A DNA stretch of 61,718 bases, filler included. It is 7 parts of 7 records of this genome, joined end to end, with 100 filler letters (N's around TTAATTAATTAA, not from the genome) between each part and the next. Parts side by side here need not be neighbours in the genome. Positions count along the whole stretch, not along the records: positions 26,358 to 40,228 come from SRR31156797_5307; 6 more parts are not named here. One strand, given 5' to 3'. The notes beneath the pieces were generated by a model. It was given only the letters and a program-made list of their open reading frames with translations. It had not been told where the DNA came from and did not search any database. Below, in pieces: positions 19,810 through 38,008 of the stretch. The translations under genes and the position numbers were made by a program. Position 1 is the stretch's first letter; every line of letters begins with the position of its first letter.

Positions 19810-22482
19810 TCAGAATCGGAAATTTATAAAGAAATTCAGGGTTAAATCTTGTGCTTTTACCAGGTTCGTTTCGGTAAACTGATTGTTATTTACATCGAAA
19901 ACACGTGTATAAATATCGAGGTAATTTTCAGTATTAAAGGCGTTTAGTATTGAAAAGCCGGGTTTTAAATTCACATTTTTAATGTTAAAATTATAATTCA
20001 ACGAAAAATCGGCCCTGAAATAATCGGGCAGGCGGTAATAAATCCGGGTAGAATTAAATTCTTCATCTTTCTCCGACGATGCTATGTAAGGTTTGCCGGT
20101 GGTGAAAATGGTAAGTGTAGAGAAATTCCATTTACGGTAATTATAAATGTTTGTCCATTTAAACTCATGCGTTTGATCGAAATTAGAAGGAATACTATTT
20201 CCGTTATTTATTTCTGCAAAGCTTCGGGTCGATTTACTTAACGAGTATGCAACCCAACTGGTAAAATTATTGCTTTCGTATTTGGCAAGAAAATCGATAC
20301 CAAGCGATTTACCACTTCCCGATATAAACTGACTTAAATCATTTTTATCAAAACTTGATGGCGGAATACTTTGGCGATTTTCCGGATTAAAAACAAATAA
20401 ATACTCCTGTAACCCTTTCACCGATTTATAGTAACCCTCTATATCAAAAAAGAAATTGTTTTTTTCGAAACTTACGCCGGCAATAAAATGGTTCGATGAG
20501 ATTATTGGATTTGTATCACCATCGGCAAGTACCCAAAAATCACGGTTGTATCCATATTTTTGTTCTGTTCCCGATTTGTTCATGTATTGAAAGTATTTAC
20601 CGGTCGCCACCTTAAAAGTTAATCCAAGGTTGGTTTTATAATTTCCGGTAAAACGGGGTTCAAAATAAATTTTTTGAGAATTACTGTAATAGTTTGCACG
20701 AAATCCGGGTTTTATGGACAGTTTATTATTCAGGTTTATTTTATCCTGAGCAAAAAAAGCGACTAATGTAGATGAACTTTTTAGATTGCTGTAAATAAAA
20801 TCGCGGGTAGCGTCTTTATAAAATGTAAACTGGTTGTATTTAGCAGAAAACCCGAATTCTAATTTGTTTTGCGAATTTATTGAATATTCATTTTTAATTG
20901 CTACAAAATAATCGGTTAAATCGTTCGTTTCGTTTGTGATATCAGTTATTTCATCCTCCTGAAAATCTGAATCGGGTTGATTATCGGAATTGAAAATTAG
21001 TGTAGTATTGTTATAATAATCGTTGAAATAGCCTGAATGGCCTAATTGCAGACTGGAAAAATATTTACTGTTCCATTGTTTATTCCAAGAAATACCCAAA
21101 CCGTAGTTTCCCCATTTGTTTATGTCGTCGGAATCTATTTCACCAAATTCGTTTGAGTTGTTATTGGAACTGTTTAAATTATCTTTTGAACCATATGAAC
21201 TAAATGACATGTTTTCTTTCTGGTTGATTTTATAGGTAAGTTTTAAATTGTAGTCGCTAAAATAAAACTCAGGGGTTATTACATTTGAATTGGGTTCAGG
21301 AGCACGTCGGATTTGTCCCAGCCTGTCGTTTAAAAGTGCATCTGAAAGCCAGGTTGAATAAATATCGGAATAAGCACGTCGTCCGGCTGCAACCAACGTT
21401 AGTTTTTTTGATATTGGAATTTCTGCAGTTAAGTTTCCACTAATAAGATTTATTCCACCGTAAAACTCCGGTTTTGTTTGATTACCCGTTTTTCCGACAA
21501 TATCGACTATTGCCGAAACACGTTCGCCATATCTGGAATCGAAACCACCGCGGTACACTTGAATGTTTTTAATTACATTCGGGTTTAATGCAGAAAAAAC
21601 GCCAAAGAAATGGTCGAGATTATATAATGTAAATCCATCGAGTAAAACCAGGTTTTGATCGGCAGAACTGCCCCGTACATTTAGTTGCGATGAATTTTCA
21701 AAAGAACTGATTCCGGGTAAAAGTTGAAGTGCTCTGAAAACATCGGTTTCGCCATAATTCGGAAGATCGACAAATTTAGTTGGATTAAATGTTACATGAC
21801 CGGCATCGTTGCTAAAATCAACCATCTCAAGTTTGTCACCTGTAACATCCACTGTTTGAATAGTTTGTGTTTTTTTTAACAGTCCCATGCTTAAAAAACG
21901 CGTGGCCTGATTAGAATTTATTACAGTATCGAGTGTTTGATAACCGAGGTATTTTATTCTAAAAAACGATGATGCTGAATCTTGCAGATGAACGCTAAAA
22001 GTACCTTCTACCGTTGAAGATATTGTGAGGTTCTTTTGCCACGAATAAATGGTTGCATAAGGAAGATGTTCTCCTGTTTCACGGTCGTAAACAATTCCCG
22101 AAAAAAGAATTTCTTTTGCCTTTTTTGCTTTTCCTTGTTGTGCAGCTTTAGCATAAATCAGGTACGTATCGTACTTTAATTCAAAGGTGAAATTGGTCTC
22201 CTCCAGTAACGAAACAAGCACATCGTTTGTGTTCTTCTCTGAAATTGTTTTAGTGATTGTAATTGTTTTTAACTTTTCAGAATCAAACGAAATGCGAATG
22301 TTCATTTCTTGCGATACATCAATCAACGCTTTAGAAAGTGGAGTACTGTTAAATGAAAATTTTATGTTTTGCGAATAACTGGAAAAAGGGATAAACGTAA
22401 AAATTATAATAGTCAAAAAAAATTGTAGTAGATTAATTTCTTTTCTCTGAAATGATAACTTTTTTGTCTTCCTTAATTTCAT
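19810..22482 (-). CDS. TonB-dependent receptor with N-terminal signalling/CarboxypepD-like and plug domains
   Basis: GETDVFRALQLLPGI, NVRGSSADQNLVLLDG plug; C-terminal Phe; follows FecR; exact start uncertain. Confidence 0.88.
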   Translation of the reverse strand: MKLRKTKKLSFQRKEINLLQFFLTIIIFTFIPFSSYSQNIKFSFNSTPLSKALIDVSQEMNIRISFDSEKLKTITITKTISEKNTNDVLVSLLEETNFTFELKYDTYLIYAKAAQQGKAKKAKEILFSGIVYDRETGEHLPYATIYSWQKNLTISSTVEGTFSVHLQDSASSFFRIKYLGYQTLDTVINSNQATRFLSMGLLKKTQTIQTVDVTGDKLEMVDFSNDAGHVTFNPTKFVDLPNYGETDVFRALQLLPGISSFENSSQLNVRGSSADQNLVLLDGFTLYNLDHFFGVFSALNPNVIKNIQVYRGGFDSRYGERVSAIVDIVGKTGNQTKPEFYGGINLISGNLTAEIPISKKLTLVAAGRRAYSDIYSTWLSDALLNDRLGQIRRAPEPNSNVITPEFYFSDYNLKLTYKINQKENMSFSSYGSKDNLNSSNNNSNEFGEIDSDDINKWGNYGLGISWNKQWNSKYFSSLQLGHSGYFNDYYNNTTLIFNSDNQPDSDFQEDEITDITNETNDLTDYFVAIKNEYSINSQNKLEFGFSAKYNQFTFYKDATRDFIYSNLKSSSTLVAFFAQDKINLNNKLSIKPGFRANYYSNSQKIYFEPRFTGNYKTNLGLTFKVATGKYFQYMNKSGTEQKYGYNRDFWVLADGDTNPIISSNHFIAGVSFEKNNFFFDIEGYYKSVKGLQEYLFVFNPENRQSIPPSSFDKNDLSQFISGSGKSLGIDFLAKYESNNFTSWVAYSLSKSTRSFAEINNGNSIPSNFDQTHEFKWTNIYNYRKWNFSTLTIFTTGKPYIASSEKDEEFNSTRIYYRLPDYFRADFSLNYNFNIKNVNLKPGFSILNAFNTENYLDIYTRVFDVNNNQFTETNLVKAQDLTLNFFINFRF

Positions 22483-23314
22483 AGTTTAACTCCATGGGAA
22501 TGCAGATAATATCTAACGCTTCCTGCAAATTTTTGGTGGAAAAAGCAACGGTTATTTCTCGTTGTTTATTGCTGTTAAATTGTACAGAAACATCAAATTG
22601 CCTTTCCAATTCGTCAAAAATAGAAACAAGCGGTTTATCTTCAAAATAAAAGAGTCCTTGTTGCCACGAAATTGTTTTTTTTATATCATTTTTTGGCATT
22701 TTTAACAATCTGCCGGATGTTAGTTTTACTAAATCGCCAGGTGTTAAAATTTGCTCTTCTGAATTTGCGGTTACCTTAACTTTTCCAGTAATGCAACTCA
22801 CCCAAAATTCGTTGTCTCTTGAAAATACATTCAGTTGAGTTCCTAAAATTTCAACATTCCCATTTTTTGTTTCAATAAGAAACGAATCTCCTTTTTTTAC
22901 TTCAAAATATGCTTCTCCCGTAAGTTTTAATTTTCTTGAATCGTTAAATTTTTTGTTATTCCAGGTAATTTTTGAATCTGAATTTAGTGTTACGTTTGTT
23001 CCGTCGGGTAATATAAATTCAGTATGTTCGGCAACTTTAGTTGCAATGTTTTTTTTCGATAAAACGGTGGAAAAAGTGTAAACACCAAGCATTACAACAA
23101 TTATTGCTGCTGCCTGCAAATAAGGCTTCATTTTGAACACTTTAACCGGGGTTGAATCATCAATTTTCGAGAATAAAACATCCAATGCTTCGTTATCGTT
23201 CATTCCTGCCGGAGGTTCCAGTCCTTCAGCCATCTGTAAGATTTTTTCCTCTGAACTCATTTCCCTGAATTCATTAGAATATATGCTGTATTTTTCGGAA
23301 TCGTTCCTGTGCAT
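22433..23314 (-). CDS. FecR-family anti-sigma factor
   Basis: LPDGTNVTLNSDS, LTGEAYFEV, VEILGTQLNV, SWQQGLFYFED. Confidence 0.92.
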   Translation of the reverse strand: MHRNDSEKYSIYSNEFREMSSEEKILQMAEGLEPPAGMNDNEALDVLFSKIDDSTPVKVFKMKPYLQAAAIIVVMLGVYTFSTVLSKKNIATKVAEHTEFILPDGTNVTLNSDSKITWNNKKFNDSRKLKLTGEAYFEVKKGDSFLIETKNGNVEILGTQLNVFSRDNEFWVSCITGKVKVTANSEEQILTPGDLVKLTSGRLLKMPKNDIKKTISWQQGLFYFEDKPLVSIFDELERQFDVSVQFNSNKQREITVAFSTKNLQEALDIICIPMELNYEIKEDKKVIISEKRN

Positions 23315-23327
23315 GGTACTTTCCCTT

Positions 23328-23843
23328 TTAAATTTTATACTGTATTGTTTTTTTTAACTCATCCAGGGCATTCTTCATTCTTTTTTCAATGGCTTTTACA
23401 CTTAATCCAAGGTTTTCAGCAATCTCATTATATGTGTATCCATCTATTCTGTTCATTAAAAAGACAACCCTGTTTTTTTCTTTTAAAGAACTTATTGCAT
23501 GTTGTAGTTTGTCGTTGAATTCTTTAAATTCCAATTCAAATTCGGGCGATTCTGATAACCCAGCTGGTTTGTATTTACTGGCAAAATCGTAAACCACCTG
23601 TTGGTGTTCAAAACGATTTTTTGTTAAATTTCCGGCAATGGTATATAAAAGCGGTTTAACCGTTTCTACCCTAATTGTATCTTTTTTTTCCCAGACTTTT
23701 ACAAATGTATCCTGTACAATATCTTCAGCTACTTCCATGTCACCCGTTTTGAAATATATATAATTCCTTACAGGTTTGTACATCTGTTGAAACAGTTCTA
23801 TAAATTTGGTTTTGTCAATCCCCGACATTGAATTAATTTTCAA
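23328..23843 (-). CDS. ECF RNA polymerase sigma-70 factor
   Basis: AEDIVQDTFVKVWE region 2; GYTYNEIAENLGLSVKAIEKRM region 4. Confidence 0.93.
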   Translation of the reverse strand: MKINSMSGIDKTKFIELFQQMYKPVRNYIYFKTGDMEVAEDIVQDTFVKVWEKKDTIRVETVKPLLYTIAGNLTKNRFEHQQVVYDFASKYKPAGLSESPEFELEFKEFNDKLQHAISSLKEKNRVVFLMNRIDGYTYNEIAENLGLSVKAIEKRMKNALDELKKTIQYKI

Positions 23844-24061
23844 AAAATTACTTTCAATTTGTTCTACTCTGCTTACTATACAGGAGCAAAATATTTTACC
23901 CTAAAATAGCGATTTAAATTTATTCAATTTTGAAGAATTACGATTTTCTGCATTTCAAATAAAACCAAAAGGAAAACAAGGTTGTTCTTTGTTTATGAAA
24001 TGCCTGTTACTTTTTTATTCTGATCTTTTTTGGATTATGTAACCGTTAAAATTCGAATACT

Positions 24062-26083
24062 ATGAAATATAAATATTCCAATCAGTTAAAACATTCTTCA
24101 TCGCCATATTTGCTGCAACATGCACACAATCCGGTAAACTGGCAGCCCTGGAGCGACAACGTAATTTCAATGGCAAAAAAAGAGAATAAGTTGATTTTGG
24201 TAAGTATTGGTTATGCAGCCTGCCACTGGTGCCATGTAATGGAACACGAAAGTTTTGAAGATGAAGAGGTAGCTGCAGTTATGAACGGGAATTTTATTTG
24301 TGTAAAAGTAGATCGCGAAGAACGACCCGATGTGGATCATTATTACATGACCGCGGTTCAGTTAATGCAAATGCAGGGCGGATGGCCATTAAATGTAATA
24401 ACACTTCCTGATGGAAAGCCAATTTGGGGGGGCACTTATTTTCCAAAGGAAACCTGGGTAAAAACAATTTCATCTATTGCAAAATATTACAGTGAAAACC
24501 AGGAGAAAACTGTTGAATACGGAGAGAATTTGCAAAAGGGAATTGAACAGGTTTCGTTAACCGGAGAAGCAAAGGAAGTAATTCCTGCAACTTCGCAATT
24601 ACTGGACCATGGAGTGTCGGAATGGAAATTAAAATTTGACATGGAAAATGGGGGCAGAGTGGGGCATCCCAAATTTCCGATGCCGGTGAATCTCGACTTT
24701 TTATTGTATTACAGTTATATAAAAAACGATGAAAAAACACTCGGTTTTGTTCAGGTCACGCTGGAAAAGATGGCACGAGGCGGAATTTACGATCAGATTG
24801 GTGGTGGTTTTGCCCGTTATTCTGTCGATGATAAATGGAAAGTTCCGCATTTCGAAAAAATGCTTTACGATAATGGTCAGTTGTTAAGTATTTATTCCAA
24901 AGGATTTCAACTTTTTAAAAGCAATGAATTTAAGGCTGTTGTTTATGAAACGGCAGATTTTATTGAACGGGAATTAATGGATGAATCTGGAGCTTTTTAT
25001 TCGTCGCTCGATGCCGATAGTGAAGGCGAAGAAGGGAAGTTTTATGTGTGGAATAAAGATGAACTGAAGTTGATCTTAAAAGAAGATTTTGAATTGTTTT
25101 CGAAGTATTATAATTTAAATTCAAGAGGATTTTGGGAAAATGGAAATTATATTCTGTTGCGCCATAAATCGGATAAAACGTTTGCAAAAGAGCAAAACAT
25201 GGAAATGGGTGAACTGCAGGAAAAAGTAAAAACATGGAAAAGTTTATTACTGAAAGAACGTTCAAAAAGAATCAGACCTGGTTTAGATGATAAAACTATA
25301 ACATCGTGGAATGCACTGGTAATTCAGGGTTTAACCGATGCTTATAAAACTTTTTATGATGAGAGGTTTTTACAAATGGCATTGAGGAATGCAAATTTTC
25401 TTCTGGTAAACCTGATTCATTCTTCCGGTAAATTATTTCACACCTGGAAAAATGGAGTCGGTTCGGTTGATGGTTTTTTAGAAGATTATGTTGCTGTAAT
25501 TCAGGCTTATATTTCGTTGTTTGAAATTACCGGCGACAAAAAATGGCTGTTTATATCCATTCAGTTAAACGAGTATGTAATCCGAAATTTTTATGATGAA
25601 GAAAGTGGATTGTTTTATTTTTCAGAAAAAGGCCGGAAAAATATTGTTACCAATCATTTTCAAAAAGAGGATAATGTAATTGCAGCATCGAATTCAATTA
25701 TGGCAAATAATCTGTATAAATTATATTTGATTAAAGGTAAACCGGAGTACCTTACTATTGTGAAAAGGATGTTGCATCATATTACCCCACAGTTTTCAAA
25801 TTATCCGATGGCATACGCCAATTGGGGAACGGTAATGTTAAAACTAAATGAACCCTATTTTGAAGTAGCAATTACAGGAAAAGGTTCAGGTAAATTACTT
25901 AAGGATTTGCAAGCCGGATTTCAGCCTAATATTTTATGGGTGTTTTCTGAAACTGAATCGGAAATTCCATTATTATCGGGGAGGTTTGTAAGTGGAGAAT
26001 CGCTTATTTATGTATGCAGGGAAGGTGTTTGTCAGCTGCCGGTAAGATCTGTAAAAGAAGCACTACAACTGCTTGAAAACTAA
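24062..26083 (+). CDS. YyaL/SSP411-type thioredoxin-domain protein
   Basis: [51 protein letters not shown]. Confidence 0.92.
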
Positions 26084-26257: not shown

Positions 26258-26357
26258 NNNNNNNNNNNNNNNNNNNNNNNNNNNNNNNNNNNNNNNNNNN
26301 NTTAATTAATTAANNNNNNNNNNNNNNNNNNNNNNNNNNNNNNNNNNNNNNNNNNNN
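26258..26357. other. Artificial contig spacer
   Basis: N44-TTAATTAATTAA-N44. Confidence 0.99.
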
Positions 26358-26622
26358 TATTAAGAGAAATCCAGTCATTATTTACATGATCAATACAGTT
26401 TTCATATCCTTCATCCCAAAATGTATACTCTTCAAGTATTTCCTGCTGAATACCTGCCTCGACCTCTAACGCAACCATCACTCTTTGGCGCATATTTTCT
26501 GCAGCTAAATCATCCAAGGATTTAAAATAAAAATAAAAAACCACTAGGACGCCTACAAAGCTAAAAGCAAGAACCGAGAGAATCGCTTTCCGCACTAATT
26601 TACCTTCATAGAACTTACGCAT
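26358..26622 (-). CDS. Membrane sensor protein, CHASE4-like N-terminus (3' truncated)
   Basis: TM helix followed by EYTFWDEGYE, resembling the CHASE4 W-D-x-x-Y motif. Confidence 0.55.
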
Positions 26623-26755
26623 ATTTTACCTATATATTATGAATTTCATCCTCTAATTAAACACACAAACACCAGTTACACATTGAAATAATATCACTTT
26701 CAAACCTCTGTGGCAAAAAAAACTGATTAAAAATGTAAAACTGTTTGAGACTCAA

Positions 26756-26798
26756 TAAAAAAAACACCATTTCATTTCTAATAAAATGAAATGGTGTT
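26756..26798 (-). terminator. Terminator of the repressor-fmdE transcript
   Basis: AACACCATTTCATTT/AAATGAAATGGTGTT stem followed by a long T tract on the minus strand. Confidence 0.75.
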
Positions 26799-26847
26799 CC
26801 CGATTGGCAGTAAAAAACATTACAAAAATTTTTCTACAACTCTCCAC

Positions 26848-28485
26848 CTACTTCCCAAACGGACATTTAGGAAAAGTGCAAGACCGACAACTGAGGCAAA
26901 GCCCACCTTCTGCTATGCGTGCAACGTCTTTACGGGTTATATTTTGCCCTGCAAGTATGCGCGGAAGCAACAGGTCGAAACTGGTGGTCTTGTAAAACAA
27001 GGCACAGGCCGGAACGCCTAGAACATCCGCCGTGCCGATCTTGCCGATAAGAAGCATGGTTCCGGGCAATGCAGGCACTCCGAATAAAGCATCTTTCAGT
27101 CCGGCATCAACCAGTCCGGCCCGAGTTGCATCATCCGGGTCAACAGATAGTCCGGCGGTTGTTACTATTAGGTCAGCACCCTGATTCAGAAGTTCTTGCA
27201 CACCATTTGAAATTGCATCCCGGTCATCAGGAACAATCGCGCTGGCGACCACTTCACACCCCAAACGCTCTACCTTACCGCTAATTATAGGGATAAATTT
27301 ATCTTCGATGAGTCCCTGAAATACTTCCGTTCCAGTAACCAGAATTCCCACTTTACCCTTTCTGATCGGGGTGACAGAAAAAAGCGGTGCTTCATCCAAC
27401 ACATTGAGCGCATTGCGGAAGACCATCTCAGAAATATACAGAGGAATTGCCCTTGTGCCGGCAACAGGTTTACCTTCATCAACTAAGATATCGCCCTGAC
27501 GGGAAGTACACATCACATCGGGCAGCATGTTGAACCGCTCAAGAATGTCGCGATTGATAATGAAAAGACCTTTGTGCGCAGCACAGAAACTAATTTTACC
27601 TTCTTCCGGAGGAGTCTTAAACACAATTCCTTCCCCGGACATTCGTTCAGCAAAAGCTTGTGCTGCTTCATTTTCATGAACCATGCCGTCGGTAATCTTT
27701 TCATCCTGAACATAAACCCGGTTACGCCCCATCTGCTGTAATCGGCAGACATCTCCGGCTGTGATTTCCTGCCCGGCCTTAAACTCCGGTCCTTTTGAGA
27801 CTCCAGCCTCAATACGGGTCATGTCGTGCAGCGCAGTTTTACCAACAGCAGCTTCTACGTCCACAGCAACAACACAATCCTCACGAACAACCTCCCGCGA
27901 GCCACCCACATATGGCATTTCACCCTGACAGCCACGGCATATGGCACCATCACTGAGGGGATATGCTTCGTTACAGGACGGACAGATGGCGATATCACGC
28001 ATATGCTTATGGCCCATGAAATCAGCTGTGATCTGCACCGGAGTCACTGTACAGATTGAAGCCCCGGCCTTGGATATTTCAGCAAAAAGCTTATCAGTAT
28101 CCTGTTCTTTTTTAGGCTTGAGCTTCAAAAACCACGACTTGATCTCCGGCCACTCTTCAAGTTTTTCAGTATCGATATGGATGCGAACCCCTTTCCCTGT
28201 ATATTTATCGTACAGGGAAAGAGCGTAACGTCCCAGTTTAATGACTTTCATCCAGCCGTTACCGTATGAACAAAGAGAGAGAATTTGAACCGCATCAGGC
28301 AAGCATTTACCTGTTTCTACCACCGCATCAAAAAGCGTGTCTGCGGGCAGATGTTTTTTGGCTTCCTCCACCATGTAACCGCCGATGAGCAGTCCCGGTG
28401 CTGGGTATCCGTGAAATTTGCGAGCAACTTCCTTGAACTCTTCAAAAGTATACGGTCCAATGTTCATAGATCTAGATGTAGGCAT
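26848..28485 (-). CDS. FmdE-family domain + zinc finger + molybdopterin-binding (MoeA/MogA-like) fusion
   Basis: FHGYPAPG, CLPDAVQ (FmdE); CPSC..CRGC; LHDMTRI, TGTEV..G.IED, GLSVDPDD, PGTML, CLSCRSCTFPKCPFGK. Confidence 0.85.
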   Translation of the reverse strand: MPTSRSMNIGPYTFEEFKEVARKFHGYPAPGLLIGGYMVEEAKKHLPADTLFDAVVETGKCLPDAVQILSLCSYGNGWMKVIKLGRYALSLYDKYTGKGVRIHIDTEKLEEWPEIKSWFLKLKPKKEQDTDKLFAEISKAGASICTVTPVQITADFMGHKHMRDIAICPSCNEAYPLSDGAICRGCQGEMPYVGGSREVVREDCVVAVDVEAAVGKTALHDMTRIEAGVSKGPEFKAGQEITAGDVCRLQQMGRNRVYVQDEKITDGMVHENEAAQAFAERMSGEGIVFKTPPEEGKISFCAAHKGLFIINRDILERFNMLPDVMCTSRQGDILVDEGKPVAGTRAIPLYISEMVFRNALNVLDEAPLFSVTPIRKGKVGILVTGTEVFQGLIEDKFIPIISGKVERLGCEVVASAIVPDDRDAISNGVQELLNQGADLIVTTAGLSVDPDDATRAGLVDAGLKDALFGVPALPGTMLLIGKIGTADVLGVPACALFYKTTSFDLLLPRILAGQNITRKDVARIAEGGLCLSCRSCTFPKCPFGK

Positions 28486-28509
28486 ATCTCTCCTGGGAAC
28501 TTTTTAATA

Positions 28510-28797
28510 TCAATCCATATAGTTCGTCATGACGGTTACGAACTTGTCCATTGCTTCTACCGGGTCCTCACCGCTCTCAAGGGCCTCAGCATAACATTTA
28601 AGCATATAACGTTTCATAATGAGTTTGCTGGATGATTTCAGGGCAGAACGGGCAGCTTTAACCTGAGTAAGAATATCGCTGCATTCCTTACCGTCCTCAA
28701 TCATTCCCTGAATTCCTCTTATCTGTCCTTCAATGCGCTTCATACGTTTGAGGACATCATTTTTTATTTTTTCCTGTTCTGCTTCGGATTCGGGCAT
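28510..28797 (-). CDS. CsoR/RcnR-family repressor with x-C-x-C (CstR-like) fingerprint
   Basis: RMKRIEGQIRGIQGMIEDGKECSDILTQ; second site RYMLKC has Tyr where Cu-sensing CsoR has His. Confidence 0.88.
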   Translation of the reverse strand: MPESEAEQEKIKNDVLKRMKRIEGQIRGIQGMIEDGKECSDILTQVKAARSALKSSSKLIMKRYMLKCYAEALESGEDPVEAMDKFVTVMTNYMD

Positions 28798-28845
28798 AAC
28801 GTACTCCTTGATCTTGTATGTGTATGAGAGATTAAGTAGGGTCCC

Positions 28846-29499
28846 ATGATGACTGATAAATACACCAACACCCCAACGTCAGAAGAAGAAAACCTTGATC
28901 AGGTCTGCCTGCTCAACTGCATTGAACTTTGCGCCATAATCTTCCGGGGGATAAACCCCGAAGAATGTGCCGCACTTTTGGACGAAGGGCTGCCCGCACT
29001 GGCTACACTTTCAGCGGAATCGCTGCAATCCCTTTCAGGGCCACTGAAAAACCTTAAAACATCCTACCCGGATGTCACCGACGCTTTTTGCGCCGAACTT
29101 GAATCCGAGTACGTGCGATTGTTTATCAACAGCCGGGACGGGATTGTCGCCCCGCTTTATGAATCCTGCTACGAGCCCGGTTCCGGAAAAGTCATGGGCG
29201 AACCGCACCTTGTCATGCGCAAACGCCTTGAAGAGGCCGGCCTCACCCCTACCGGAGAACAGGCTTCCGAACCAATGGACCACCTGTGCATAGAGCTGGA
29301 ATATCTGTACGTACAGTTGGCTAACGGCTGGGGCGGAGGAGATGAGAAGGCCCTCAACAATGCCCGCTCCTTTGCCGCCGAAAAACTAATCTGGATTCGC
29401 AAATTCAACGAAAAGCTATCTTCCGGCGGAGCTATAAAATTCTACGTTGCTGCATCAGCGCTGCTTATCGCCATGCTGGAAGAGGTTACTTCCTCCTGA
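28846..29499 (+). CDS. TorD/DmsD-family molybdoenzyme chaperone
   Basis: EYVRLF, APLYESCY, EPMDHLCIELEYL. Confidence 0.92.
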   Translation: MMTDKYTNTPTSEEENLDQVCLLNCIELCAIIFRGINPEECAALLDEGLPALATLSAESLQSLSGPLKNLKTSYPDVTDAFCAELESEYVRLFINSRDGIVAPLYESCYEPGSGKVMGEPHLVMRKRLEEAGLTPTGEQASEPMDHLCIELEYLYVQLANGWGGGDEKALNNARSFAAEKLIWIRKFNEKLSSGGAIKFYVAASALLIAMLEEVTSS

Positions 29500-30487
29500 C
29501 ACATTTTCGTCCCGGCTTTCCACTCAAGGCATCGTTGATCCGCTTGACCAACGGTGCCGATCCGGAGACAAGATCATTACAGGAAAACATCTCTGTAAAA
29601 CCCTGAGCTTCTTTTTGAAGCATAAACACGGCAGGAAGATCCAATCCTTCACGCATGTCCCCGCTTTGCTCCAGAGGATCAGCCAGCATGGGAAATCCGG
29701 CCTTGTTAATTTTATGAAAACGCACGGCTTCGCGCCGATTCATTCCCAAGCCTACAGTGATAAAAAACATATCCGGGGTGCAGCACTCCAATTCCTTGCG
29801 GGCAGCATCAACACTCAAGACCGCCTGTGAATTTTCAGGATGCCCTTCCTCGACCAACAGAAGCAGAAAATACTTCGCTTCAAGTGACACAAGATCCAGT
29901 TTGCTTTGAGCTACCTGCAATCCCAGATAATTCCGCTCTTCAGCATTGCCGCTGAAGGTAAAACTCATGTCCGGGTAACTTCTCTGATCCGCGACTTTTT
30001 TTGGCGGTGGATGACTCTCCACCCAACCAAACCAGCCGTGGGGATAGCGGTAAACTGATTTGTATCCAAGACGCGCAGCACGGCGCGCCGCAATGGCACT
30101 GCGCAGTCACCTGAAACTGCGGCAATAAATGATTACCGTTCTGTCTAAATCAGGCCCAAGCAGCTTCCGGAATTTCTTTTCCTTGTTTTCAGAAATATAC
30201 TGCTCTTCACTCAGGTCGAATTCCATATTCAGGGCACCGGAGATATGCCCGTCCTCGTATTCATATCCAGCCCGAACATCCAGCAGCAGTGCTCCCGGGT
30301 CACTTTTCAGCTTGTCAGTCAGTCCTTTTTCATCCACCAGCTCATAGCCGAAACGATACGCCTCGTTTTGCGCATCAGGCCACCAGCTGGGCAAATTATT
30401 TACCGCCTGTGCTGACCCGCAGAGGAAAATCAGACACAGGGAAAATAGGACGATTAACGTTGTCAGCAAAATTCTGGTTCCGGCCAT
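29486..30487 (-). CDS. Putative selenoprotein: exported rhodanese (Sec at codon 127) fused to a thioredoxin-like domain; split into two ORFs in the track
   Basis: In-frame TGA at 30107-30109 in YCRSFR-U-LRSAIAARRAARLGYKSVYRYPHGWFGW aligns with YCQGLK-C-KLSHKSAKKAVKLGYKNVKVYPYGYPGW of the neighbouring rhodanese; frame stays open to TAA 29486; ATG 30487 after GGAG. Confidence 0.85.
30072..30106 (-). promoter_or_regulatory. Candidate bacterial SECIS element
   Basis: Directly 3' of the UGA: lower stem GCGCAG/CUGCGC, upper stem GCGG/CCGU, loop CGCG starting 19 nt after the UGA (folded by eye). Confidence 0.6.
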
Positions 30488-30504
30488 GACTGCTCCGGTA
30501 AATT

Positions 30505-30534
30505 CAGGGGCCGGAATCAAAATTCCGGCCCCTG
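30505..30534 (-). other. 13-bp GC-rich intergenic hairpin without U-tract
   Basis: CAGGGGCCGGAAT-CAAA-ATTCCGGCCCCTG between the two rhodanese genes. Confidence 0.7.
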
Positions 30535-30546
30535 CCTAAGATTCAA

Positions 30547-31659
30547 TTACTTCTTGGGAGAATGGATGGTGTAGCTGCCGTCCTTATGGAAGTCCGTTTC
30601 AGCTTCAAGGTAATAAACTTCCTTGATATCAGGACGCATATCCAAGGTCATGTAGTAAGCTTCACCACTGCGAGCACCGGTGGTGCAGACAAACACGATG
30701 GGCTTATCAGCCGGAAGCTTCTTGATATTCTTCTCAAGCATGTCCACTGACATGTTCACTGCACTGGGGATATGCCCCTGTGCGTATTCATCAGCATCAC
30801 GAACGTCGATCAGCATGATGGAATTGGGGCTCTCGGCAACAATCTTCTTGAACTGCTCGATATCGATGCTGCCTTCTTCACCGCCGGACTTAACTTCAAC
30901 AGCACCGGATGCGCCGTATAGTTTTTTCCAACCGGGGTATCCGGCTTCTGCAACGTGAACGTTTTTGTAACCGATACCCATGGCGCGGATAGCGGACTTA
31001 TGGCTCAGCTTACACTTGTAGCCACCGCAAAAGTAGATAAGCTTAATGTTTCTCTTATCTGCGGGCAGCAGGCCGGTGCGCTTAGCCCACTTGGAATCTG
31101 GAATTGAGATTGCGGAAGGAATGGAACCAGCAAGAAACTTCTTGGTAGGACGGGCATCGATAAGCATGTAGGGTTCGCCCTTAGCCATCATATCGGCAAC
31201 GGTTTCGAGTCCGATACCACCGTAACGACCGGATTTCATCCAACCGGGGTACCCATAGGGGTATACCTTTACGTTCTTGTAGCCCAGCTTGACCGCCTTT
31301 TTGGCGGACTTGTGACTAAGCTTGCACTTGAGGCCCTGACAATAAAAAATGAGCAGGGTATTTTTGTCCTTAGGCAACTTGTCGGCCATCTTGTCGAACT
31401 TAGAATCCGGGATGGAAACCGCGGTGGGAATATAACCAAGAATGTACTTGCCCTTGTATGGACGGGAATCAATAATCATCACGCCTTCAGGTTTGGGCAT
31501 TTTGGCGTACTTGGCAACAAAGTCGGTGCCGACCATATCCATGTACATCCAATCCTGAATCTTATTCTTGGGTACAACGTCTTTAGCCATGGCCGGCGCG
31601 GCAACAAACGCCAGACACAGAGCCATCAGCAATGCAGTAGTAAACAGCTTTTTCCTCAT
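30547..31659 (-). CDS. Periplasmic triple-rhodanese-domain sulfurtransferase
   Basis: Signal peptide (..APAMA); three repeats IDSR/IDAR/IDVR...G.IP.A; active loops FYCQGLKC, YFCGGYKC, FVCTTGARS. Confidence 0.92.
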   Translation of the reverse strand: MRKKLFTTALLMALCLAFVAAPAMAKDVVPKNKIQDWMYMDMVGTDFVAKYAKMPKPEGVMIIDSRPYKGKYILGYIPTAVSIPDSKFDKMADKLPKDKNTLLIFYCQGLKCKLSHKSAKKAVKLGYKNVKVYPYGYPGWMKSGRYGGIGLETVADMMAKGEPYMLIDARPTKKFLAGSIPSAISIPDSKWAKRTGLLPADKRNIKLIYFCGGYKCKLSHKSAIRAMGIGYKNVHVAEAGYPGWKKLYGASGAVEVKSGGEEGSIDIEQFKKIVAESPNSIMLIDVRDADEYAQGHIPSAVNMSVDMLEKNIKKLPADKPIVFVCTTGARSGEAYYMTLDMRPDIKEVYYLEAETDFHKDGSYTIHSPKK

Positions 31660-31705
31660 TTAACTCTCCCTTTCCTCAATGGTTAATATTTCATGCGCTG
31701 TGCGC

Positions 31706-32431
31706 TTATTTCTGAACTTCAGATGAAGGATCATCTTTCACACGATCATACCAGAGCTTGTGGTGATGCTTGGCGTAATCCTCCGGCACGTGTCCGGTGA
31801 ACATGGAACGGAAACCCGGACGCTCTTCCGGTGAGATAGCCGCCATATAAATATGGACCAGCAGCCCTGCGAAGACCAAACCCACGGCAAGGTAATGCAG
31901 AGTGATGGACCAGCTCACCAAAGCGACATGTTCCGGGCCAAGGGTGCGGTCAGACAGAAACATGATTATTCCGGTCACCACGATCACGATTCCGCCCACA
32001 ACTGATGCCTGAGCAAAGGCCTTCTGGCCCATGTTGTAGTAACCTTGGTCAGGAAGCTCACTATTCTTTCCAAGCATCTTCGGTCCGGCGGTCATCAGGA
32101 TCATCTTGCGGATCATCCAAGCAATGTCGCGGGCCGGATCGACCATGAATACTTCTTTCAAAAAAAACATAGCTCCCTTGAAATTGATCAGCATGTAGAG
32201 GAGCAACCCGCCAGCCCAGAGGAATCCAAGGGTGACGTGAATAGTCAGCAGATTTCCGCCCCCGCCCACAAGTGAGCGCATGAAAGCCGGATAGCCTGAT
32301 CCCAACGGATCAATTTCAGGATTACCGAAAAGCCCCAGTCCGGTGACCAGCAACAGGAACCAGCAGACAGCGTTGAACCAGTGAATGAAAATGTCCGAGC
32401 GGTCATGCCGCTTGTATTGTCTCTGAGTCAT
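31706..32431 (-). CDS. Cytochrome b membrane anchor (FdnI/PhsC-like)
   Basis: Four TM helices with His ligands (IHW, IHV, LHY, VHIY); QGYYNMGQK; RSMFTGHVPEDYAKHHH. Confidence 0.9.
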   Translation of the reverse strand: MTQRQYKRHDRSDIFIHWFNAVCWFLLLVTGLGLFGNPEIDPLGSGYPAFMRSLVGGGGNLLTIHVTLGFLWAGGLLLYMLINFKGAMFFLKEVFMVDPARDIAWMIRKMILMTAGPKMLGKNSELPDQGYYNMGQKAFAQASVVGGIVIVVTGIIMFLSDRTLGPEHVALVSWSITLHYLAVGLVFAGLLVHIYMAAISPEERPGFRSMFTGHVPEDYAKHHHKLWYDRVKDDPSSEVQK

Positions 32432-33198
32432 TACGCATCACCTCCCTTATTTGGGGAGTCTTTATAGGAATCGTCATGCTCTTCTGAACCGACCAGAAGC
32501 TGACGTCCCAGCATCACTGCCACTCCCAGACCGGAAAGGCCTACCACGGTTTTGACCAGCGGGTTAACCATAGTGGTAAGCACGTCCATGGATGATGGCA
32601 TTCGCGCCTCCACAGGCCATTCCAACGGTGCGGTTTCACCGAGATAAATCATGTTCGGTTTGGTGTCGGACTTGGCATTGATCACCCGGACCAGCTTGCC
32701 CTTATTTTCCTGAAGCAGCCGTGCGGCCTCAGAATTGGGATCGTTTATGTCACCAAAGACCCGAGCCTTGGTAGGACAAGTGTCCACACAAGCCGGGAGC
32801 AAGCCCTGTGCACGGCGATCAGCACAGAAGTCGCACTTATCGGCCTTGCGGGTTATTTCATTGCGGAAACGAGCATCGTACGGACAGGCCGGTATACAGT
32901 TACCGCAACCGATACACAGAGTATTATCGATGCGCACGGTTCCGTCTTTCTTATCCTTATAGGTAGCCCCGGTGGGACAAGCCTGAACGCAGGTGGGATT
33001 ATCGCAATGCATACAGCCACCGGGCTGAAAATGGGTTCGCGGCCTTCTGGAAGCAAAGTCCGGCACAGATGCCTTGATCCAGTTACGCCACTGCCCTTCC
33101 GGCACATCGTTGGCGACCTTGCAGGAAGCCATACAGCCCTTGCAGTCTATGCACTTTGACGAATCGATGACCATTGCGAGTTGTACTGTTTTACTCAT
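32431..33198 (-). CDS. 4x[4Fe-4S] electron-transfer subunit (PsrB/PhsB/NrfC-like) with C-terminal TM helix
   Basis: CIDCKGCMASC, CMHCDNPTCVQACP, CIGCGNCIPACP, CDFC..PACVDTCP. Confidence 0.93.
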   Translation of the reverse strand: MSKTVQLAMVIDSSKCIDCKGCMASCKVANDVPEGQWRNWIKASVPDFASRRPRTHFQPGGCMHCDNPTCVQACPTGATYKDKKDGTVRIDNTLCIGCGNCIPACPYDARFRNEITRKADKCDFCADRRAQGLLPACVDTCPTKARVFGDINDPNSEAARLLQENKGKLVRVINAKSDTKPNMIYLGETAPLEWPVEARMPSSMDVLTTMVNPLVKTVVGLSGLGVAVMLGRQLLVGSEEHDDSYKDSPNKGGDA

Positions 33199-35393
33199 GA
33201 GGCCACCTTCCTTGTTACGGATACAAATGTTTCATGCATCGCAGCATTACCGCAGATTTCATCGTAACCCTCCTGAAGCACCGCAGCCATGCTGCCCCCT
33301 TCGCCAAAGATAAGGCTGAGTTGCGGGGACAAGGTTCCAAAACCGGAGAGCATATAAACTGTATTTTCAAGAATACCGTCGGTAATCTCTACTTTAAGTT
33401 CACCCTTGCCCACGGAACTTGAAACTTCCACGGTATCACCAGGCTTGATGCCAAGCCTTTCAGCAGCCTTGGTATTCAGCCAGAGAGTATTGGGTCCGGT
33501 TATCTGGTGCAGCACGGAGTTGTTCTGCGAAGAAGTCTGAGTGACTGAAGCACTGCGTCCGATAACCATGCGGAACCTGTTTTTAGGAGGCTTGGCCGGA
33601 GGTGCGTAGATCGGCAGAGGGTCCACGCCCATCTTTTCGTAACGCTGGTTGTAAAGCTCCACTTTCTTGCTGAGCGTCTTGTATACACGATCTTCGTAAA
33701 TGCCATAAACCTTACTGGGATTGTAGTAGACGCCATCCTTTTTAAAGGCTTCGGCTGCTCCGGGCAGTTCGCGCAATTGCTTCTTACGATATTCCTCAAT
33801 GGTAAAATCGAAGTATTCGCCAAGCTCCAGCTTTCCTGCCACATCCTTAAGCACATCGAAAACCGGACGGGATTCATAAAGAGCCGGAACAACCGGATCA
33901 CGCTGCACAACACAGGCACAGGCAACCGATCCCTGAAGACCGGAAGCAGGGTCCTGCCGTTCCAGATAACTGGGGGCAGGCAACACGAGATCGGCCATCC
34001 AAGCGGTATCGCTCATGGCGATATCCACCACGGTCATAAATTCCATGGAATTACACATCTCGATTGTCTTGGCCCGGTTAGGTGCGGTCCCCATAGGGTT
34101 GGTTTTGTAAACGAACCAGCCTTTGATGGGATACGGCTTACCTTCAAGTATCGCGTCGCGGGTAATTACAAACGAACCGTCATGCTCGAACAACATGGGC
34201 ACCTTGTGGGCATCGATACGGTCATCAGGATTCTCATCATACCACGGAGCATCATAAGGAACGCCCTTGAGTCCCACTTCGCGTGCCGCGAGCAATCCAC
34301 CTGGCTGATCCCAGTTACCGAGTAGACCGTTCACAATGGCAAAGCTGCGGCGAATCTGGGTGGAGTTCTTATAGTCGGAAGTACGGCGACCGGGATAGAT
34401 CATGGAAGCCGGTGCGGCAGCAGCCAGCTCGCGGGCTATGCGGGCGATGTCCTGGGCGGGAATGCCACATTCTTCAGCGGCATAGCGGGGATCATACTTC
34501 TGCACATGTTCACGAAGCTGATCAATGCCGTAAGTTTTATCGGCGATCCACTTTTTGTCGTAAAGTTCTTCATTAATAATGACATTCGCCAGCGCGAGCA
34601 TGAAGACCATGTCCGTACCGGGCTGGATGGGATACCATTCGTCCGCCAATGCTGCGGTCTTGGTATAACGAGGATCAAGCACCACAAGTTTGGAGCCCTT
34701 CTGCATGGCAGTCATCAGGTCGATGGAGTCGGGGGTAACCAGAGCTTCAAAGCGGTTGGCCCCGGCCATGATGATATATTTACTGTTGAGGACATCAGCA
34801 AACGGAACTTCGCCGAAGGTATCAAGAAAGGCACGGCTTCCGCTAAGCAGACAAAGGGATTCGTGGGAAGTCACGTTGTAAGAACCGTAGACTTCGGCAA
34901 AACGGCCCACGAACTTGGATTGCAGGTCGGCTCCGGCAGTAAAGAGATGCCCACAGGGGGTATACTTCTTACGGATGTCCTGCATCTTTTCCGCCATCAA
35001 ATCGATGGCCTCATCCCACGGAATGCGCTGCCATTTCCCCTCACCACGCTCGCCCTTTCTAAGCAAGGGATGCTTGAGTCGGTCAGGGTCGTACATCTGT
35101 GCCACCCCGGCATTACCACGGGCGCAGAGCATACCTCTGGACTTAAGAAATTTAGGGTTGGGATCAAGCTTCTTGACCACACCGTCCTGAATTCGGGCGA
35201 TGCAGCCGCACTTGTTGAAGCACATATCACAGGCCGAGAAGGCCGATTCCCATTTACCGGATGATTTAATTACCTGTGCGGACGCCGCTTCGAGTCCGCC
35301 CAGAACGGGGACACTCCCGGCTGCGGCAGCGGCCAGCATCCCGGAGGCCTTGAAAAAGTCGCGGCGGGAAAGCCTGGTCTTGTCTTTAGCCAC
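33195..35393 (-). CDS. Tat-exported Mo/W-bisPGD oxidoreductase, PsrA/PhsA/SrrA clade
   Basis: Tat motif SRRDFFK; CDMCFNKC...LCARG [4Fe-4S]; SHESLC candidate Mo-ligand Cys; GTG start at 35393 after GGAGG. Confidence 0.9.
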   Translation of the reverse strand: MAKDKTRLSRRDFFKASGMLAAAAAGSVPVLGGLEAASAQVIKSSGKWESAFSACDMCFNKCGCIARIQDGVVKKLDPNPKFLKSRGMLCARGNAGVAQMYDPDRLKHPLLRKGERGEGKWQRIPWDEAIDLMAEKMQDIRKKYTPCGHLFTAGADLQSKFVGRFAEVYGSYNVTSHESLCLLSGSRAFLDTFGEVPFADVLNSKYIIMAGANRFEALVTPDSIDLMTAMQKGSKLVVLDPRYTKTAALADEWYPIQPGTDMVFMLALANVIINEELYDKKWIADKTYGIDQLREHVQKYDPRYAAEECGIPAQDIARIARELAAAAPASMIYPGRRTSDYKNSTQIRRSFAIVNGLLGNWDQPGGLLAAREVGLKGVPYDAPWYDENPDDRIDAHKVPMLFEHDGSFVITRDAILEGKPYPIKGWFVYKTNPMGTAPNRAKTIEMCNSMEFMTVVDIAMSDTAWMADLVLPAPSYLERQDPASGLQGSVACACVVQRDPVVPALYESRPVFDVLKDVAGKLELGEYFDFTIEEYRKKQLRELPGAAEAFKKDGVYYNPSKVYGIYEDRVYKTLSKKVELYNQRYEKMGVDPLPIYAPPAKPPKNRFRMVIGRSASVTQTSSQNNSVLHQITGPNTLWLNTKAAERLGIKPGDTVEVSSSVGKGELKVEITDGILENTVYMLSGFGTLSPQLSLIFGEGGSMAAVLQEGYDEICGNAAMHETFVSVTRKVAS

Positions 35394-35436
35394 TTCCACC
35401 TCCATGTTGATCAAGTGGAAAGGAGTTTAGATTAAA

Positions 35437-35461
35437 GCGGCGGAACCAAACATTCCGCCGC
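35437..35461 (-). other. Intergenic hairpin after the cytochrome c gene
   Basis: GCGGCGGAA-CCAAACA-TTCCGCCGC. Confidence 0.6.
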
Positions 35462-35485
35462 ACGCAAAACGCTGCTGATTAAACT

Positions 35486-35809
35486 CTAGCTACACTTAGC
35501 CGGAGAAGGAGAATCCTTGGCATAGTCATGTAGGTAGGTGAAAATATCGTTGATATCCTTTTCCTTTACCTTCTTCCAATCAGCGAAACACGGGATCTTG
35601 GAAGTGTCGGAGAACATAGCAGTCCACTCAGCCTGAGTCTTGGTGCTGGGACTTAAATCGGATGCGGATTGGCCGTGACAGGAACGGCAATGCTTACGAT
35701 ACAGAAATTTACCTTTACGGGCATTACCACCGCCAAAAGCAGTAGCCATGCTGGCCATGGACAGAATAAAGAGGGCACAAACCAAAATACCTATTACCTT
35801 GCGATTCAT
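35486..35809 (-). CDS. Small periplasmic monoheme cytochrome c
   Basis: Signal peptide, GNARKGKFLYRKHCRSCH (single CxxCH). Confidence 0.9.
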   Translation of the reverse strand: MNRKVIGILVCALFILSMASMATAFGGGNARKGKFLYRKHCRSCHGQSASDLSPSTKTQAEWTAMFSDTSKIPCFADWKKVKEKDINDIFTYLHDYAKDSPSPAKCS

Positions 35810-35900
35810 TAGAAACCTCCAAAATTATTTTTCCTAACCCATAACATCCCCTCACCTTTTTTGGAAGCAAAGAGACGCTTTTATCCAACTCTTCGACTTC

Positions 35901-35929
35901 AATATACCCATACGGGGTATAGGTGTCAA
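35901..35929 (-). promoter_or_regulatory. Sigma70 promoter with an embedded CsoR/CstR-type operator
   Basis: TTGACA-17nt-TATATT on the minus strand; palindrome TATACCC-ATACG-GGGTATA at 35903-35921 overlaps the spacer and -10. Confidence 0.85.
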
Positions 35930-35963
35930 CAATAACTCGCACGAAAACGCATAGGCTCATTCG

Positions 35964-36529
35964 GCAATCCCCCCGAAAATTAATTGTTCTGAAAAGTAGA
36001 ATTTTCTCGTGAAGAAGACCGAGGAGATTCGAATGAAAAAATCACATTACAGCGACAGTCAAATTTTGAGTATTTTGAAGCAAGCCGAAAATGGTGTTCC
36101 CGTTGCCGAGCTTTGCCGAGAACACGGAATGAGCAGCGCCACGTTTTACAAATGGCGTTCAAAATATGGCGGGATGGACGCATCCTTGATGGCCCGCATG
36201 AAAGATCTGGAACGCGAGAATCGCCAATTAAAGAAAAGGCTAACATCGGTCAGGCGTGCAAAGCCGTCGGGATCAGTCAAACGTGCTACAGATACGAACC
36301 GAAACTGTCCGCTGAGAACAATATTATGGTCCGATTGACGCACAATCAGCATAACTGGGGTTTTGGCCTGTGCTTCCTGCACCTGCGCAACATACAGGGT
36401 TTTTCATGGAACCATAAACGTGTTTACCGGATCTACCGTGAGTTTGAGCTAAACATGCGCATCAAGCCTAAAAAACGAATTGTGCGAGACAAGCCGGAAG
36501 TGAAACGTCTACTGGAAAACTTTTCCTAA
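35964..36529 (+). mobile_element. IS3-family remnant (orfA plus internally deleted, truncated orfB)
   Basis: OrfA from 36033: MKKSHYSDSQILSILKQAENGVPVAELCREHGMSSATFYKWRSKYGG; OrfB WGFGLCFLHLRN..WNHKRVYRIYRE; no DDE domain; left end approximate. Confidence 0.88.
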
Positions 36530-36898
36530 TAAATTTAATTCCACCAAGCATATCCCGAATATATAGTCTCTTCAGAAGTAAACTTTTAGCCTATATGATA
36601 TTTTACTTCAGAAATAAAAAAATCGACAAATAAGTAGACAAAACAACCCAAGAATATTATCAGCAAAATAATTGTAAAGCTAAAAAACTAAAAATAAGCC
36701 TTTAAGACTAGCATCATTAAGAAATTTTGATTTGGTATTTTGTATTTGGACACTAATCTCTCTATCAGGTGAGTTTAGCTTTTTTGTGACGGATGGATGC
36801 ATTATAAAAAAACGAGCCCATATGTCAGATTTGATATTGTGTCGAATTGGCGAACAGCTCAGATCAGATGCACATTGAAATTGAAAAGGAAGAACGCG

Positions 36899-37987
36899 AT
36901 GAACACTATGACGAATTCTCTGAATAAGGAATGTGGTATCGAAAAAACACCAATTAAAAAACTGGTGCGGACCTCACCGATTTCAAATGTAGAAATTCTG
37001 GTTAAATTAGAATTTTATAATCTAAGCGGGAGTGTAAAGGACAGGCCTGCAAGGTATCTGATAAACATGGCTGAGCAGAGTGGACAATTAACGACTGGCG
37101 GTACCATCATTGAATCGTCTTCTGGAAATTTTGGTATTTCATTGGCTATGATAGGCGCTCAACGGGGTTATCGTGTGATCATTTTAATAGACCCCAAAAC
37201 GACTATGACAAATAAAAGAATTATTGAGGCTTATGGAGCAGAGACAATCATTGTTACTGAGAAGGATGATTGTGGCTCATACCATAAAACACGGATAGCT
37301 TTAGCAAATCAGCTTGCAAAGGAAATCCCAGGAAGTTTTAGGCCTGACCAATGTTTTAATCCCAGTAATGCCGTAGCGCATTATAATATAACTGGCCCAG
37401 AAATCGTAAACCAACTACAAGAAGCTCCAGATATAATTGTAGCTGCAGTAAGCACTGGGGGGCAGATCGGTGGGCTGTCTCGATATTTTAAAAAAAATAA
37501 CTTGGCGTGTCGAATTATTGCAGTTGATGCCGTGGGGTCTGCGGTGTTTGGTGGAGAAAGTCATTCCTACTTGTTGCCAGGGATGGGACTTGGCTGGACA
37601 TCACCAAATATTTCAGACCTCTCAGCAATTGACCGTGTCTACAAGGTTCCAGATGCTTTGGCGTTCCAATGTTGCCACATTATGGCAAGGTATGAAGGTT
37701 TTATGTTAGGTGGATCTTCAGGTGCTGCGATTGCAGCAGCCTTTCGTGAAGCCAAAGAAGCGAAACCAGGTTCAAAAATTTTAGTCATCGCGGGGGACAA
37801 CGGTGGACGATACGTAGACACTATATTCAATCAGGACTGGCTGGAAAATAATGGTGTTATGCGGTCGTACAAACTGGAAAACTTCCATCAAGATCTGACC
37901 GAATTAAATCCATACTCCTGCCATCCGTCAGAATGCGAAAATTATAACCTTGATCTGGCTCAAGAGCTCGGCAGTAATTACTTATAA
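36899..37987 (+). CDS. PLP-dependent cysteine-synthase-family enzyme, SbnA-like
   Basis: SGSVKDR (PLP Lys), ESSSGNFG; IDPKTT..N, E.DD.GSY..TRI, AVSTGG and AVDAVGS..FG resemble SbnA more than CysK/CysM. Confidence 0.85.
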   Translation: MNTMTNSLNKECGIEKTPIKKLVRTSPISNVEILVKLEFYNLSGSVKDRPARYLINMAEQSGQLTTGGTIIESSSGNFGISLAMIGAQRGYRVIILIDPKTTMTNKRIIEAYGAETIIVTEKDDCGSYHKTRIALANQLAKEIPGSFRPDQCFNPSNAVAHYNITGPEIVNQLQEAPDIIVAAVSTGGQIGGLSRYFKKNNLACRIIAVDAVGSAVFGGESHSYLLPGMGLGWTSPNISDLSAIDRVYKVPDALAFQCCHIMARYEGFMLGGSSGAAIAAAFREAKEAKPGSKILVIAGDNGGRYVDTIFNQDWLENNGVMRSYKLENFHQDLTELNPYSCHPSECENYNLDLAQELGSNYL

Positions 37988-38008
37988 ATAGGTTTAGGGT
38001 TATTATTT

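Follow-up and report, generated by a model that had tools for sequence, protein, structure and literature searches.

A predicted selenocysteine-containing rhodanese with a thioredoxin-fold domain, encoded in a molybdoenzyme operon of sulfate-reducing bacteria

Introduction

The locus described here raises the question of whether a TGA that falls within the active loop of a rhodanese separates two genes or is read as selenocysteine (Sec) in a single longer protein and, if so, what that protein would do beside the molybdoenzyme operon to which its gene is linked. The window, i.e., the whole stretch of DNA that was analysed (61,718 nucleotides, filler included), consists of seven unrelated contigs of 32-56% GC joined by N spacers (10264-10363, 17236-17335, 26258-26357, 40229-40328, 50366-50465, and 56578-56677), and the gene of interest lies in the part spanning 26358-40228. 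Bacteroidetes-like genes upstream were considered as context of this gene and were rejected, being on a separate contig of the concatenated stretch; the genes at 19810-26083 (a TonB-type receptor, a FecR-like protein, and an ECF sigma factor, all named by eye) belong to another organism. Neither a tRNA nor an Rfam match was found anywhere in the window.

A public contig matches a 1.2-kb stretch without a differing letter at a word depth of 243, and this contig may be the source of the DNA. The sequencing runs listed for the stretch include no RNA run and one DNA run, which may likewise be the source. In this DNA run, two more contigs match, in each case solely at the TGA and its surroundings (30061-30127); they possibly represent further members of the family in the sample.

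One Reading Frame Across an In-Frame TGA

Under translation table 11 the gene appears as two open reading frames in the same frame of the minus strand, one at 30107-30520 (137 amino acids, TTG start) and the other at 29486-30022 (178 amino acids, GTG start). When TGA is read as Sec, these become one coding sequence of 333 amino acids at 29486..30487, which begins with ATG at 30487, ends with a TAA whose last position is 29486, and contains a single in-frame TGA at 30109-30107, i.e., codon 127, within the motif YCRSFR-U-LRS. The ATG at 30487 is the likelier start and is preferred to the TTG at 30520, because a GGAG sequence lies upstream of it and the TTG falls inside a 13-bp inverted repeat (30505..30534, minus strand). 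This repeat, located between the Sec gene and an adjoining triple rhodanese gene, has no U-run and is not among the terminators listed.

The first-pass annotation of this DNA had proposed that the shorter upstream frame stops exactly where both N-terminal domains of the triple rhodanese have the second Cys of a C-x4-C motif, and that homology resumes beyond the stop. Alignment agrees on both points: the TGA occupies the column of that second Cys in each domain, and similarity to the two domains runs on past it (E 2e-14 and 3e-7). A plain stop at this codon is disfavoured because it would cut the rhodanese domain at its active loop.

The Codon at the TGA Column in Relatives

The codon at this column was tallied in 51 sequences, made up of the window, the 30 best family loci, four weaker loci, five loci from a phylum sample, and 11 loci from a second class within that phylum. 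TGA is present in 35 and TGC or TGT in 16, while TAA, TAG, and TGG are absent. The tally leaves out TsoB-type sequences, single-domain CGFxKC rhodaneses, C-terminal-only matches, weaker unfetched rows, and duplicates (L001/L041/L042), and it draws on samples of larger groups, namely 301 genomes for the family and 401 for the phylum. A six-frame search of the 301 family genomes gave matches in 53 at E 1e-15, and the best 30 loci comprise 25 with TGA and five with TGC or TGT; 16 of 95 genomes matched in the second class. A gene of Maridesulfovibrio sp. L001 is 77% identical over residues 1-333 and carries TGA at the same position, and the lineages bearing TGA include sequences with identity as low as about 30%. 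When 67 domains were placed on a quick tree (132 columns, root not tested), the U/C label switched about 10 times, with at least three of the switches forced by strong branches.

The frame beyond the TGA is also retained. It stays open for 197-214 codons in 23 of the 25 TGA loci among the best family loci; in the remaining two the stop comes 46-50 codons on, past the rhodanese domain, as it also does in two Cys loci. The six closest loci conserve the 28 codons that come after the TGA and differ there by 5-10 synonymous changes. The Cys/TGA pairs that the first-pass annotation had proposed seeking are therefore present in relatives, and the signs it had named as contrary, i.e., TAA or TAG in place of TGA and decay of the downstream frame, were not encountered among the 51 sequences. 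On this comparative evidence, the TGA is very probably read as selenocysteine, which would yield one protein of 333 amino acids, predicted to carry Sec at position 127.

Protein databases give a fragmentary picture of the same genes. The first search for relative loci with the window protein returned one true relative among four loci, and the first protein search gave only two proteins of near length, P0002 and P0003, which are homologous over the full length and have Cys at the TGA column. As many as 59 of the 150 best HMMER matches end exactly at the active loop, although these are protein records in which codons are not visible, and in M. salexigens the gene is recorded as two proteins, ACS78442.1 (123 amino acids) and Desal_0376 (178 amino acids). 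No fetched homologous protein contains U, and Sec-bearing records may escape the protein searches that were used; a plasmid search gave just two weak partial rhodanese matches. Annotation has hidden this very probably Sec-containing protein in dozens of sulfate-reducer genomes.

The separate annotation of the two halves, a Trp at the second loop position of homologue P0013 (a protein record whose codon is not visible), and the nondiagnostic hairpin discussed below could favour a sequencing error, recoding to Trp, or genuine termination at the TGA, with either two proteins or a pseudogene as the result, but such readings are highly improbable given the absence of TAA and TAG alongside 35 TGA codons in divergent lineages, the invariable use of Cys as the alternative in the 51 DNA sequences, the conservation past the TGA, and the use of TGA as the ordinary stop of the neighbouring torD, phsA, and csoR genes.

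Selenocysteine Genes and the Hairpin Downstream of the UGA

Genes for Sec biosynthesis and insertion, whose absence would have spoken against the proposal, are found in the relatives. The five closest genomes all contain selB, a TGA-containing selD, and tRNA-Sec besides selA, and selA is present in each of the 34 TGA-carrying genomes (28 + 6). Its co-occurrence is weak evidence, however, because selA is general in the family (267 of 301 genomes) and nearly all Cys forms come from selA-positive genomes (15 of 16 sequences). The idea that Sec use tracks selA was set aside as uninformative.

A bacterial SECIS element is modelled as a hairpin with a G in its apical loop just downstream of the UGA (the bSECIS model). 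Folding places a hairpin with a 7-bp stem and a 6-nt loop at 30070..30089 (minus strand), +18 to +37 after the UGA, with a predicted energy of -11.0 kcal/mol, a loop beginning at +25, and G as the second loop nucleotide. The selD hairpins of the closest genomes are comparable, being located at +21 with energies of -12.6 to -14.8. The stem-loop proposed in the first-pass annotation thus exists, but alone it is not unusual. The hairpin region differs little from shuffled sequences (z 0.6), and the window hairpin alone gives p 0.135 against synonymous resampling. A hairpin filter was passed by 28 of 32 TGA forms, where about 50% were expected from synonymous resampling, and six of eight Cys forms passed it as well (Fisher p 0.34). 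Conservation of fourfold degenerate sites is higher in codons +1 to +12 than in the other codons (0.72 vs. 0.49, p 0.008); covariation was not significant (28 of 500 shuffles; 68 of 500 for pairing), and RNAalifold prefers a register other than that of this hairpin. Codon-bias p values that were also computed take no account of relatedness among the sequences. A post hoc contrast in register (25 of 32 TGA forms vs. one of eight Cys forms, p 0.001) failed in new loci, in which a +23 hairpin was found in five of eight further Cys forms. The hairpin was accordingly rejected as independent proof of Sec, given its occurrence in Cys orthologues and the lack of significant covariation; it is compatible with a SECIS element and is not diagnostic of one.

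Domain Architecture of the Protein

An AlphaFold2 model based on 52 rows (mean pLDDT 92, pTM 0.67) contains an N-terminal helix, a rhodanese domain, and a second alpha/beta domain, with pLDDT blocks of 95-98 across residues 111-150. Residues 1-28 (30404..30487, minus strand) form a putative Sec-pathway signal peptide, a hydrophobic helix (residues 3-23 in the model) that ends in A-Q-A. No conserved lipoprotein Cys was found in the family sequences. These features suggest that the protein would be exported.

The rhodanese domain comprises residues 59-157 (30017..30313, minus strand) and spans the TGA. It matches Pfam PF00581 with E 1.1e-17 and 64.7 bits, well above the gathering cut-off of 22.2. 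Alignment to the 6mxv loop, YCGS--GFRS, identifies Cys122 (30122..30124) as the canonical active-loop cysteine and places U127 five residues beyond it, within a two-residue insertion relative to 6mxv. Because Sec is thus removed from the canonical catalytic Cys, the name Sec-sulfurtransferase given in the first-pass annotation describes an inferred activity. The family loop was compared in 15 homologues that read through the site. Five of them (P0006, P0009, P0010, P0012, and P0018) have Asp in place of the first loop Cys and retain the second site, four of these five being full-length proteins with CxxC; in one homologue the second site is Trp. The retention of the second site in the Asp forms points to the Sec position as the more constant chalcogen of the loop.

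The C-terminal half has a different fold, which the first-pass annotation overlooked. It gave no Pfam match when searched alone; its best Foldseek matches are to ResA (E 2.7e-7, target TM 0.74-0.79), and profile matches to ResA/TlpA agree, indicating a ResA/TlpA-like thioredoxin fold at about residues 170-325 (29513..29980, minus strand, with approximate bounds). Of the 48 rows that have this domain, 39 contain CxxC; those that do not are the window protein, the six relatives closest to it, and two more. The window protein has the thioredoxin-like fold of the ResA/TlpA oxidoreductases without their CxxC active site, since the residues at the CxxC column of the family are H216-P-E-N219 (29831..29842). 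What its clade has conserved instead is a Cys pair, C235-C236, together with a C-terminal Cys. Four loci (L018, L031, L032, and L033), of both Sec and Cys types and within the same operon, encode single-domain forms without the thioredoxin half.

Operon and Neighbouring Genes

The Sec gene is linked to an operon on the minus strand. The first gene encodes a small c-type cytochrome (35486..35809) and is followed by genes for a Tat-exported molybdoenzyme of the PsrA/PhsA/SrrA lineage (33195..35414), a 4Fe-4S subunit (32431..33198), an FdnI-like cytochrome b membrane subunit of 241 amino acids (31706..32431), and the triple rhodanese with two C-x4-C loops (30547..31659); the cytochromes and the 4Fe-4S subunit are assigned from profile matches and wide loci. 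This order, ending with the Sec gene, is kept in all 19 wide family loci, and in all 30 loci compared the gene immediately upstream encodes the triple rhodanese; among 11 later loci, one (L103) has no triple rhodanese nearby. A sigma-70-like promoter match (11 of 12 positions) upstream of the cytochrome c gene, at 35901..35929 (minus strand), is a consensus match only, as a looser threshold gave six sites vs. 8.7 by chance. A terminator-like hairpin was observed at 35437-35461 (minus strand), between the cytochrome c and molybdoenzyme genes; this hairpin or the inverted repeat at 30505-30534 may tune expression within the operon.

Downstream, a convergent gene for a TorD-family chaperone (28846..29499, plus strand) overlaps the 3' end of the Sec gene by 14 nt. 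All but one of 30 loci have this chaperone gene at a distance of no more than 1.5 kb, and it was seen in 16 of the 19 wide loci. Beyond it lies a gene for a CsoR-family repressor (28510..28797, minus strand), in which Tyr replaces the copper-binding His between C39 and C68. Of the 30 loci that were scored, 28 have Cys39/Tyr64/Cys68, and in alignments to CsoR and to 7mq1/7mq2 the latter likewise do not have the His of copper CsoRs. As 7mq1 and 7mq2 are named CstR, a persulfide sensor, in PMC9774590, the repressor by its residue pattern would resemble CstR and not copper CsoR.

Two further features of the surroundings were noted. An FmdE/zinc finger/molybdopterin-binding fusion (26848-28485, minus strand) adjoins the operon in the closest genomes and in some distant ones. 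On the other side, past the operon, an island of lower GC (36009-40128, plus strand) contains transposase fragments and genes for a PLP-dependent cysteine-synthase-like protein, an MFS transporter, and a RimK-like ATP-grasp protein; Maridesulfovibrio sp. L001 has iron-uptake-like genes (named by eye) at this position.

Proposed Role and Alternatives

The conserved linkage suggests that the product of the Sec gene is a physical partner of the reductase. Its role is probably that of a periplasmic sulfane-sulfur or polysulfide accessory of a PsrA/PhsA/SrrA-type enzyme. The family profile matches PDB 1qxn (E 5.5e-7), which we take to be Sud of Wolinella succinogenes, the polysulfide carrier for Psr. 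Sud is a single-Cys, single-domain protein. In the proposed mechanism, the C122-x4-U127 loop would pick up sulfane sulfur from polysulfide or elemental sulfur, Sec127, as the reactive partner, would form a selenylsulfide or perselenide with C122, and the sulfur would be handed on to the triple rhodanese or the molybdoenzyme, in the manner of Sud. That the loop takes and passes sulfur in this way, with Sec127 as reactive partner, is somewhat favoured. In most relatives, the CxxC of the thioredoxin domain would re-reduce the loop; in the clade of the window, because CxxC has been lost, the domain might instead serve as a scaffold or use other cysteines. The CstR-like pattern of the repressor beside the operon is counted in favour of a role in polysulfide or persulfide metabolism.

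The strongest competitor, which is nevertheless rather unlikely, holds that the selenoprotein is not a sulfur carrier but a periplasmic thiol/disulfide redox or maturation factor, which would keep Cys residues reduced in the reductase, in the triple rhodanese, or in apo-cytochrome c. The ResA/TlpA-like domain with its frequent CxxC, the position of Sec away from the canonical sulfurtransferase site, the five Asp-containing homologues, and the cytochrome c gene within the operon all accord with such a function. The clade of the window has no CxxC, however, and the single-domain forms dispense with the entire thioredoxin half, while the rhodanese loop is always kept.

Less probable still is an Srr-like function, in which selenite or some other chalcogen oxyanion would be the substrate of the operon and the rhodaneses would handle selenium intermediates. 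As described in PMC12481199, srrABCDEF of Bacillus selenitireducens has the same gene inventory, i.e., a molybdoenzyme, an Fe-S protein, an anchor, a chaperone, and two rhodanese proteins, and SrrA is placed in one lineage with PsrA and PhsA in PMC7331816. SrrE and SrrF are rhodaneses tied to a reductase of this lineage, as is the Sec protein, but neither they nor Sud are described as selenoproteins in the literature consulted. The likeness is one of gene inventory by description, the anchor of the present operon is a cytochrome b of 241 amino acids vs. the 43-kDa SrrC, and the residue pattern of the CstR-like repressor is more in keeping with the sensing of persulfides.

Service to a thiosulfate (or tetrathionate) reductase is improbable. 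Among NCBIfam models the molybdoenzyme scores highest with PhsA, at 518 bits, and its best PDB match (2vpw, E 8.8e-110) is labelled thiosulfate reductase, but the PhsA score is below the cut-off of 694. Desulfovibrio alaskensis G20 has genes annotated in the same order, Dde_0683-0677, their orthology being supported by gene order and annotation only, and the available data list fitness values of -0.11 to +0.13 for them on lactate/thiosulfate (one pooled experiment, columns counted by hand) vs. -0.79 for Dde_1076, a separate PhsA of G20 (PMC4215793). Dde_1076 was rejected as the G20 counterpart of the molybdoenzyme, as it has different neighbours. The lack of a thiosulfate phenotype in the same-order genes, unlike the separate PhsA, is counted for the polysulfide role.

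A wider form of the polysulfide accessory proposal is tentative: the operon may represent an overlooked selenium-dependent module for respiration of elemental sulfur or polysulfide (or selenium) in many Desulfovibrionaceae and a second class, with Sec127 as nucleophile and the thioredoxin domain recycling it. If so, Sec127, and not the canonical rhodanese cysteine, would mobilise periplasmic chalcogen chains and feed a Psr-type molybdoenzyme. The fixed operon context, unlike that of most predicted rhodanese selenoproteins, makes the function testable; D. alaskensis G20 is genetically tractable and mutants of its cluster with the same gene order already exist, and the natural C-x4-U, C-x4-C, and D-x4-C variants, which bear on the role of the second loop chalcogen, offer a ready test series.

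Relationship to Known Rhodanese Selenoproteins

Five rhodanese selenoprotein forms are listed among 119 families in the accessible part of Table 1 of a 2026 review (PMC13188914), which contains no row for a rhodanese joined to a thioredoxin fold. The closest in its loop is form 1 (PF00581, UxxS; Geobacter), an exported rhodanese with a C-x4-U-x-x-S loop and Sec in the same column as in the window protein. The deep-Sep supplement (PMC12013277) gives FYCGGVTUVLS as the loop of its representative, WP_010941598.1, so that CGGVT-U-VLS corresponds to CRSFR-U-LRS of the window protein, and further C-x4-U rhodaneses, e.g., YCMGFRUVYA, occur in the same supplement. The C-x4-U loop of the first-pass annotation is therefore present but already known, and it constitutes neither a new recoding event nor a new Sec motif. 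The architectures differ, in that the form 1 representative is a multi-rhodanese protein (by eye) and the window protein has one rhodanese domain and a thioredoxin fold. The strings CRSFR, ULRS, UVRS, and FRULR are absent from the deep-Sep files searched, in which long sequences extend to about 400 letters.

TsoB (NF045694, UxxxxU), a rhodanese/DsbD fusion-like protein, shares this column, which is occupied by the second of its Sec residues with xRS after it. For 43 of 52 rows, its model is the best NCBIfam match, the matched region being the N-terminal 160 amino acids; the window protein, however, scores 105.6 bits against a cut-off of 805 and so falls outside TsoB. The first loop residue of TsoB is Sec and its length is about 570 amino acids, whereas the window protein has Cys there and 333 amino acids. 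TsoB-type rows form a clade of their own in the quick tree (support 99), and the two TsoB loci fetched are without the operon. A dedicated NCBIfam model was not found among the best matches of the 52 rows, all of which are far below the TsoB cut-off. Form 3 (NF041203, LYCAU) resembles the window protein in being a single rhodanese with Sec in its loop, but its spacing is C-x-U, and the window protein reaches 29.9 bits vs. a cut-off of 115. ResA and TlpA share the fold of the C-terminal half, and CxxC with most orthologues of the Sec protein, at 13-16% identity; the window protein differs from them in having no CxxC and in the fusion of the domain behind a rhodanese.

The literature searched contained no description of this rhodanese and thioredoxin-fold family, although homology-based databases such as BSepDB may already list the genes under form 1. 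What is apparently new in this rhodanese selenoprotein subfamily is the combination of loop, domain fusion, and operon. The subfamily appears to have gone unlisted in well-studied sulfate reducers, for which databases give a truncated rhodanese and a hypothetical protein.

In the course of these searches, two other loci, L057 and L062 (G663:C26 and G351:C23), were found to encode TsoB-type U-x4-U rhodanese domains in short frames of about 165 amino acids, which are possibly stand-alone TsoB-like selenoproteins. A second TGA-containing rhodanese match lies about 1.5 kb away in G663:C26.
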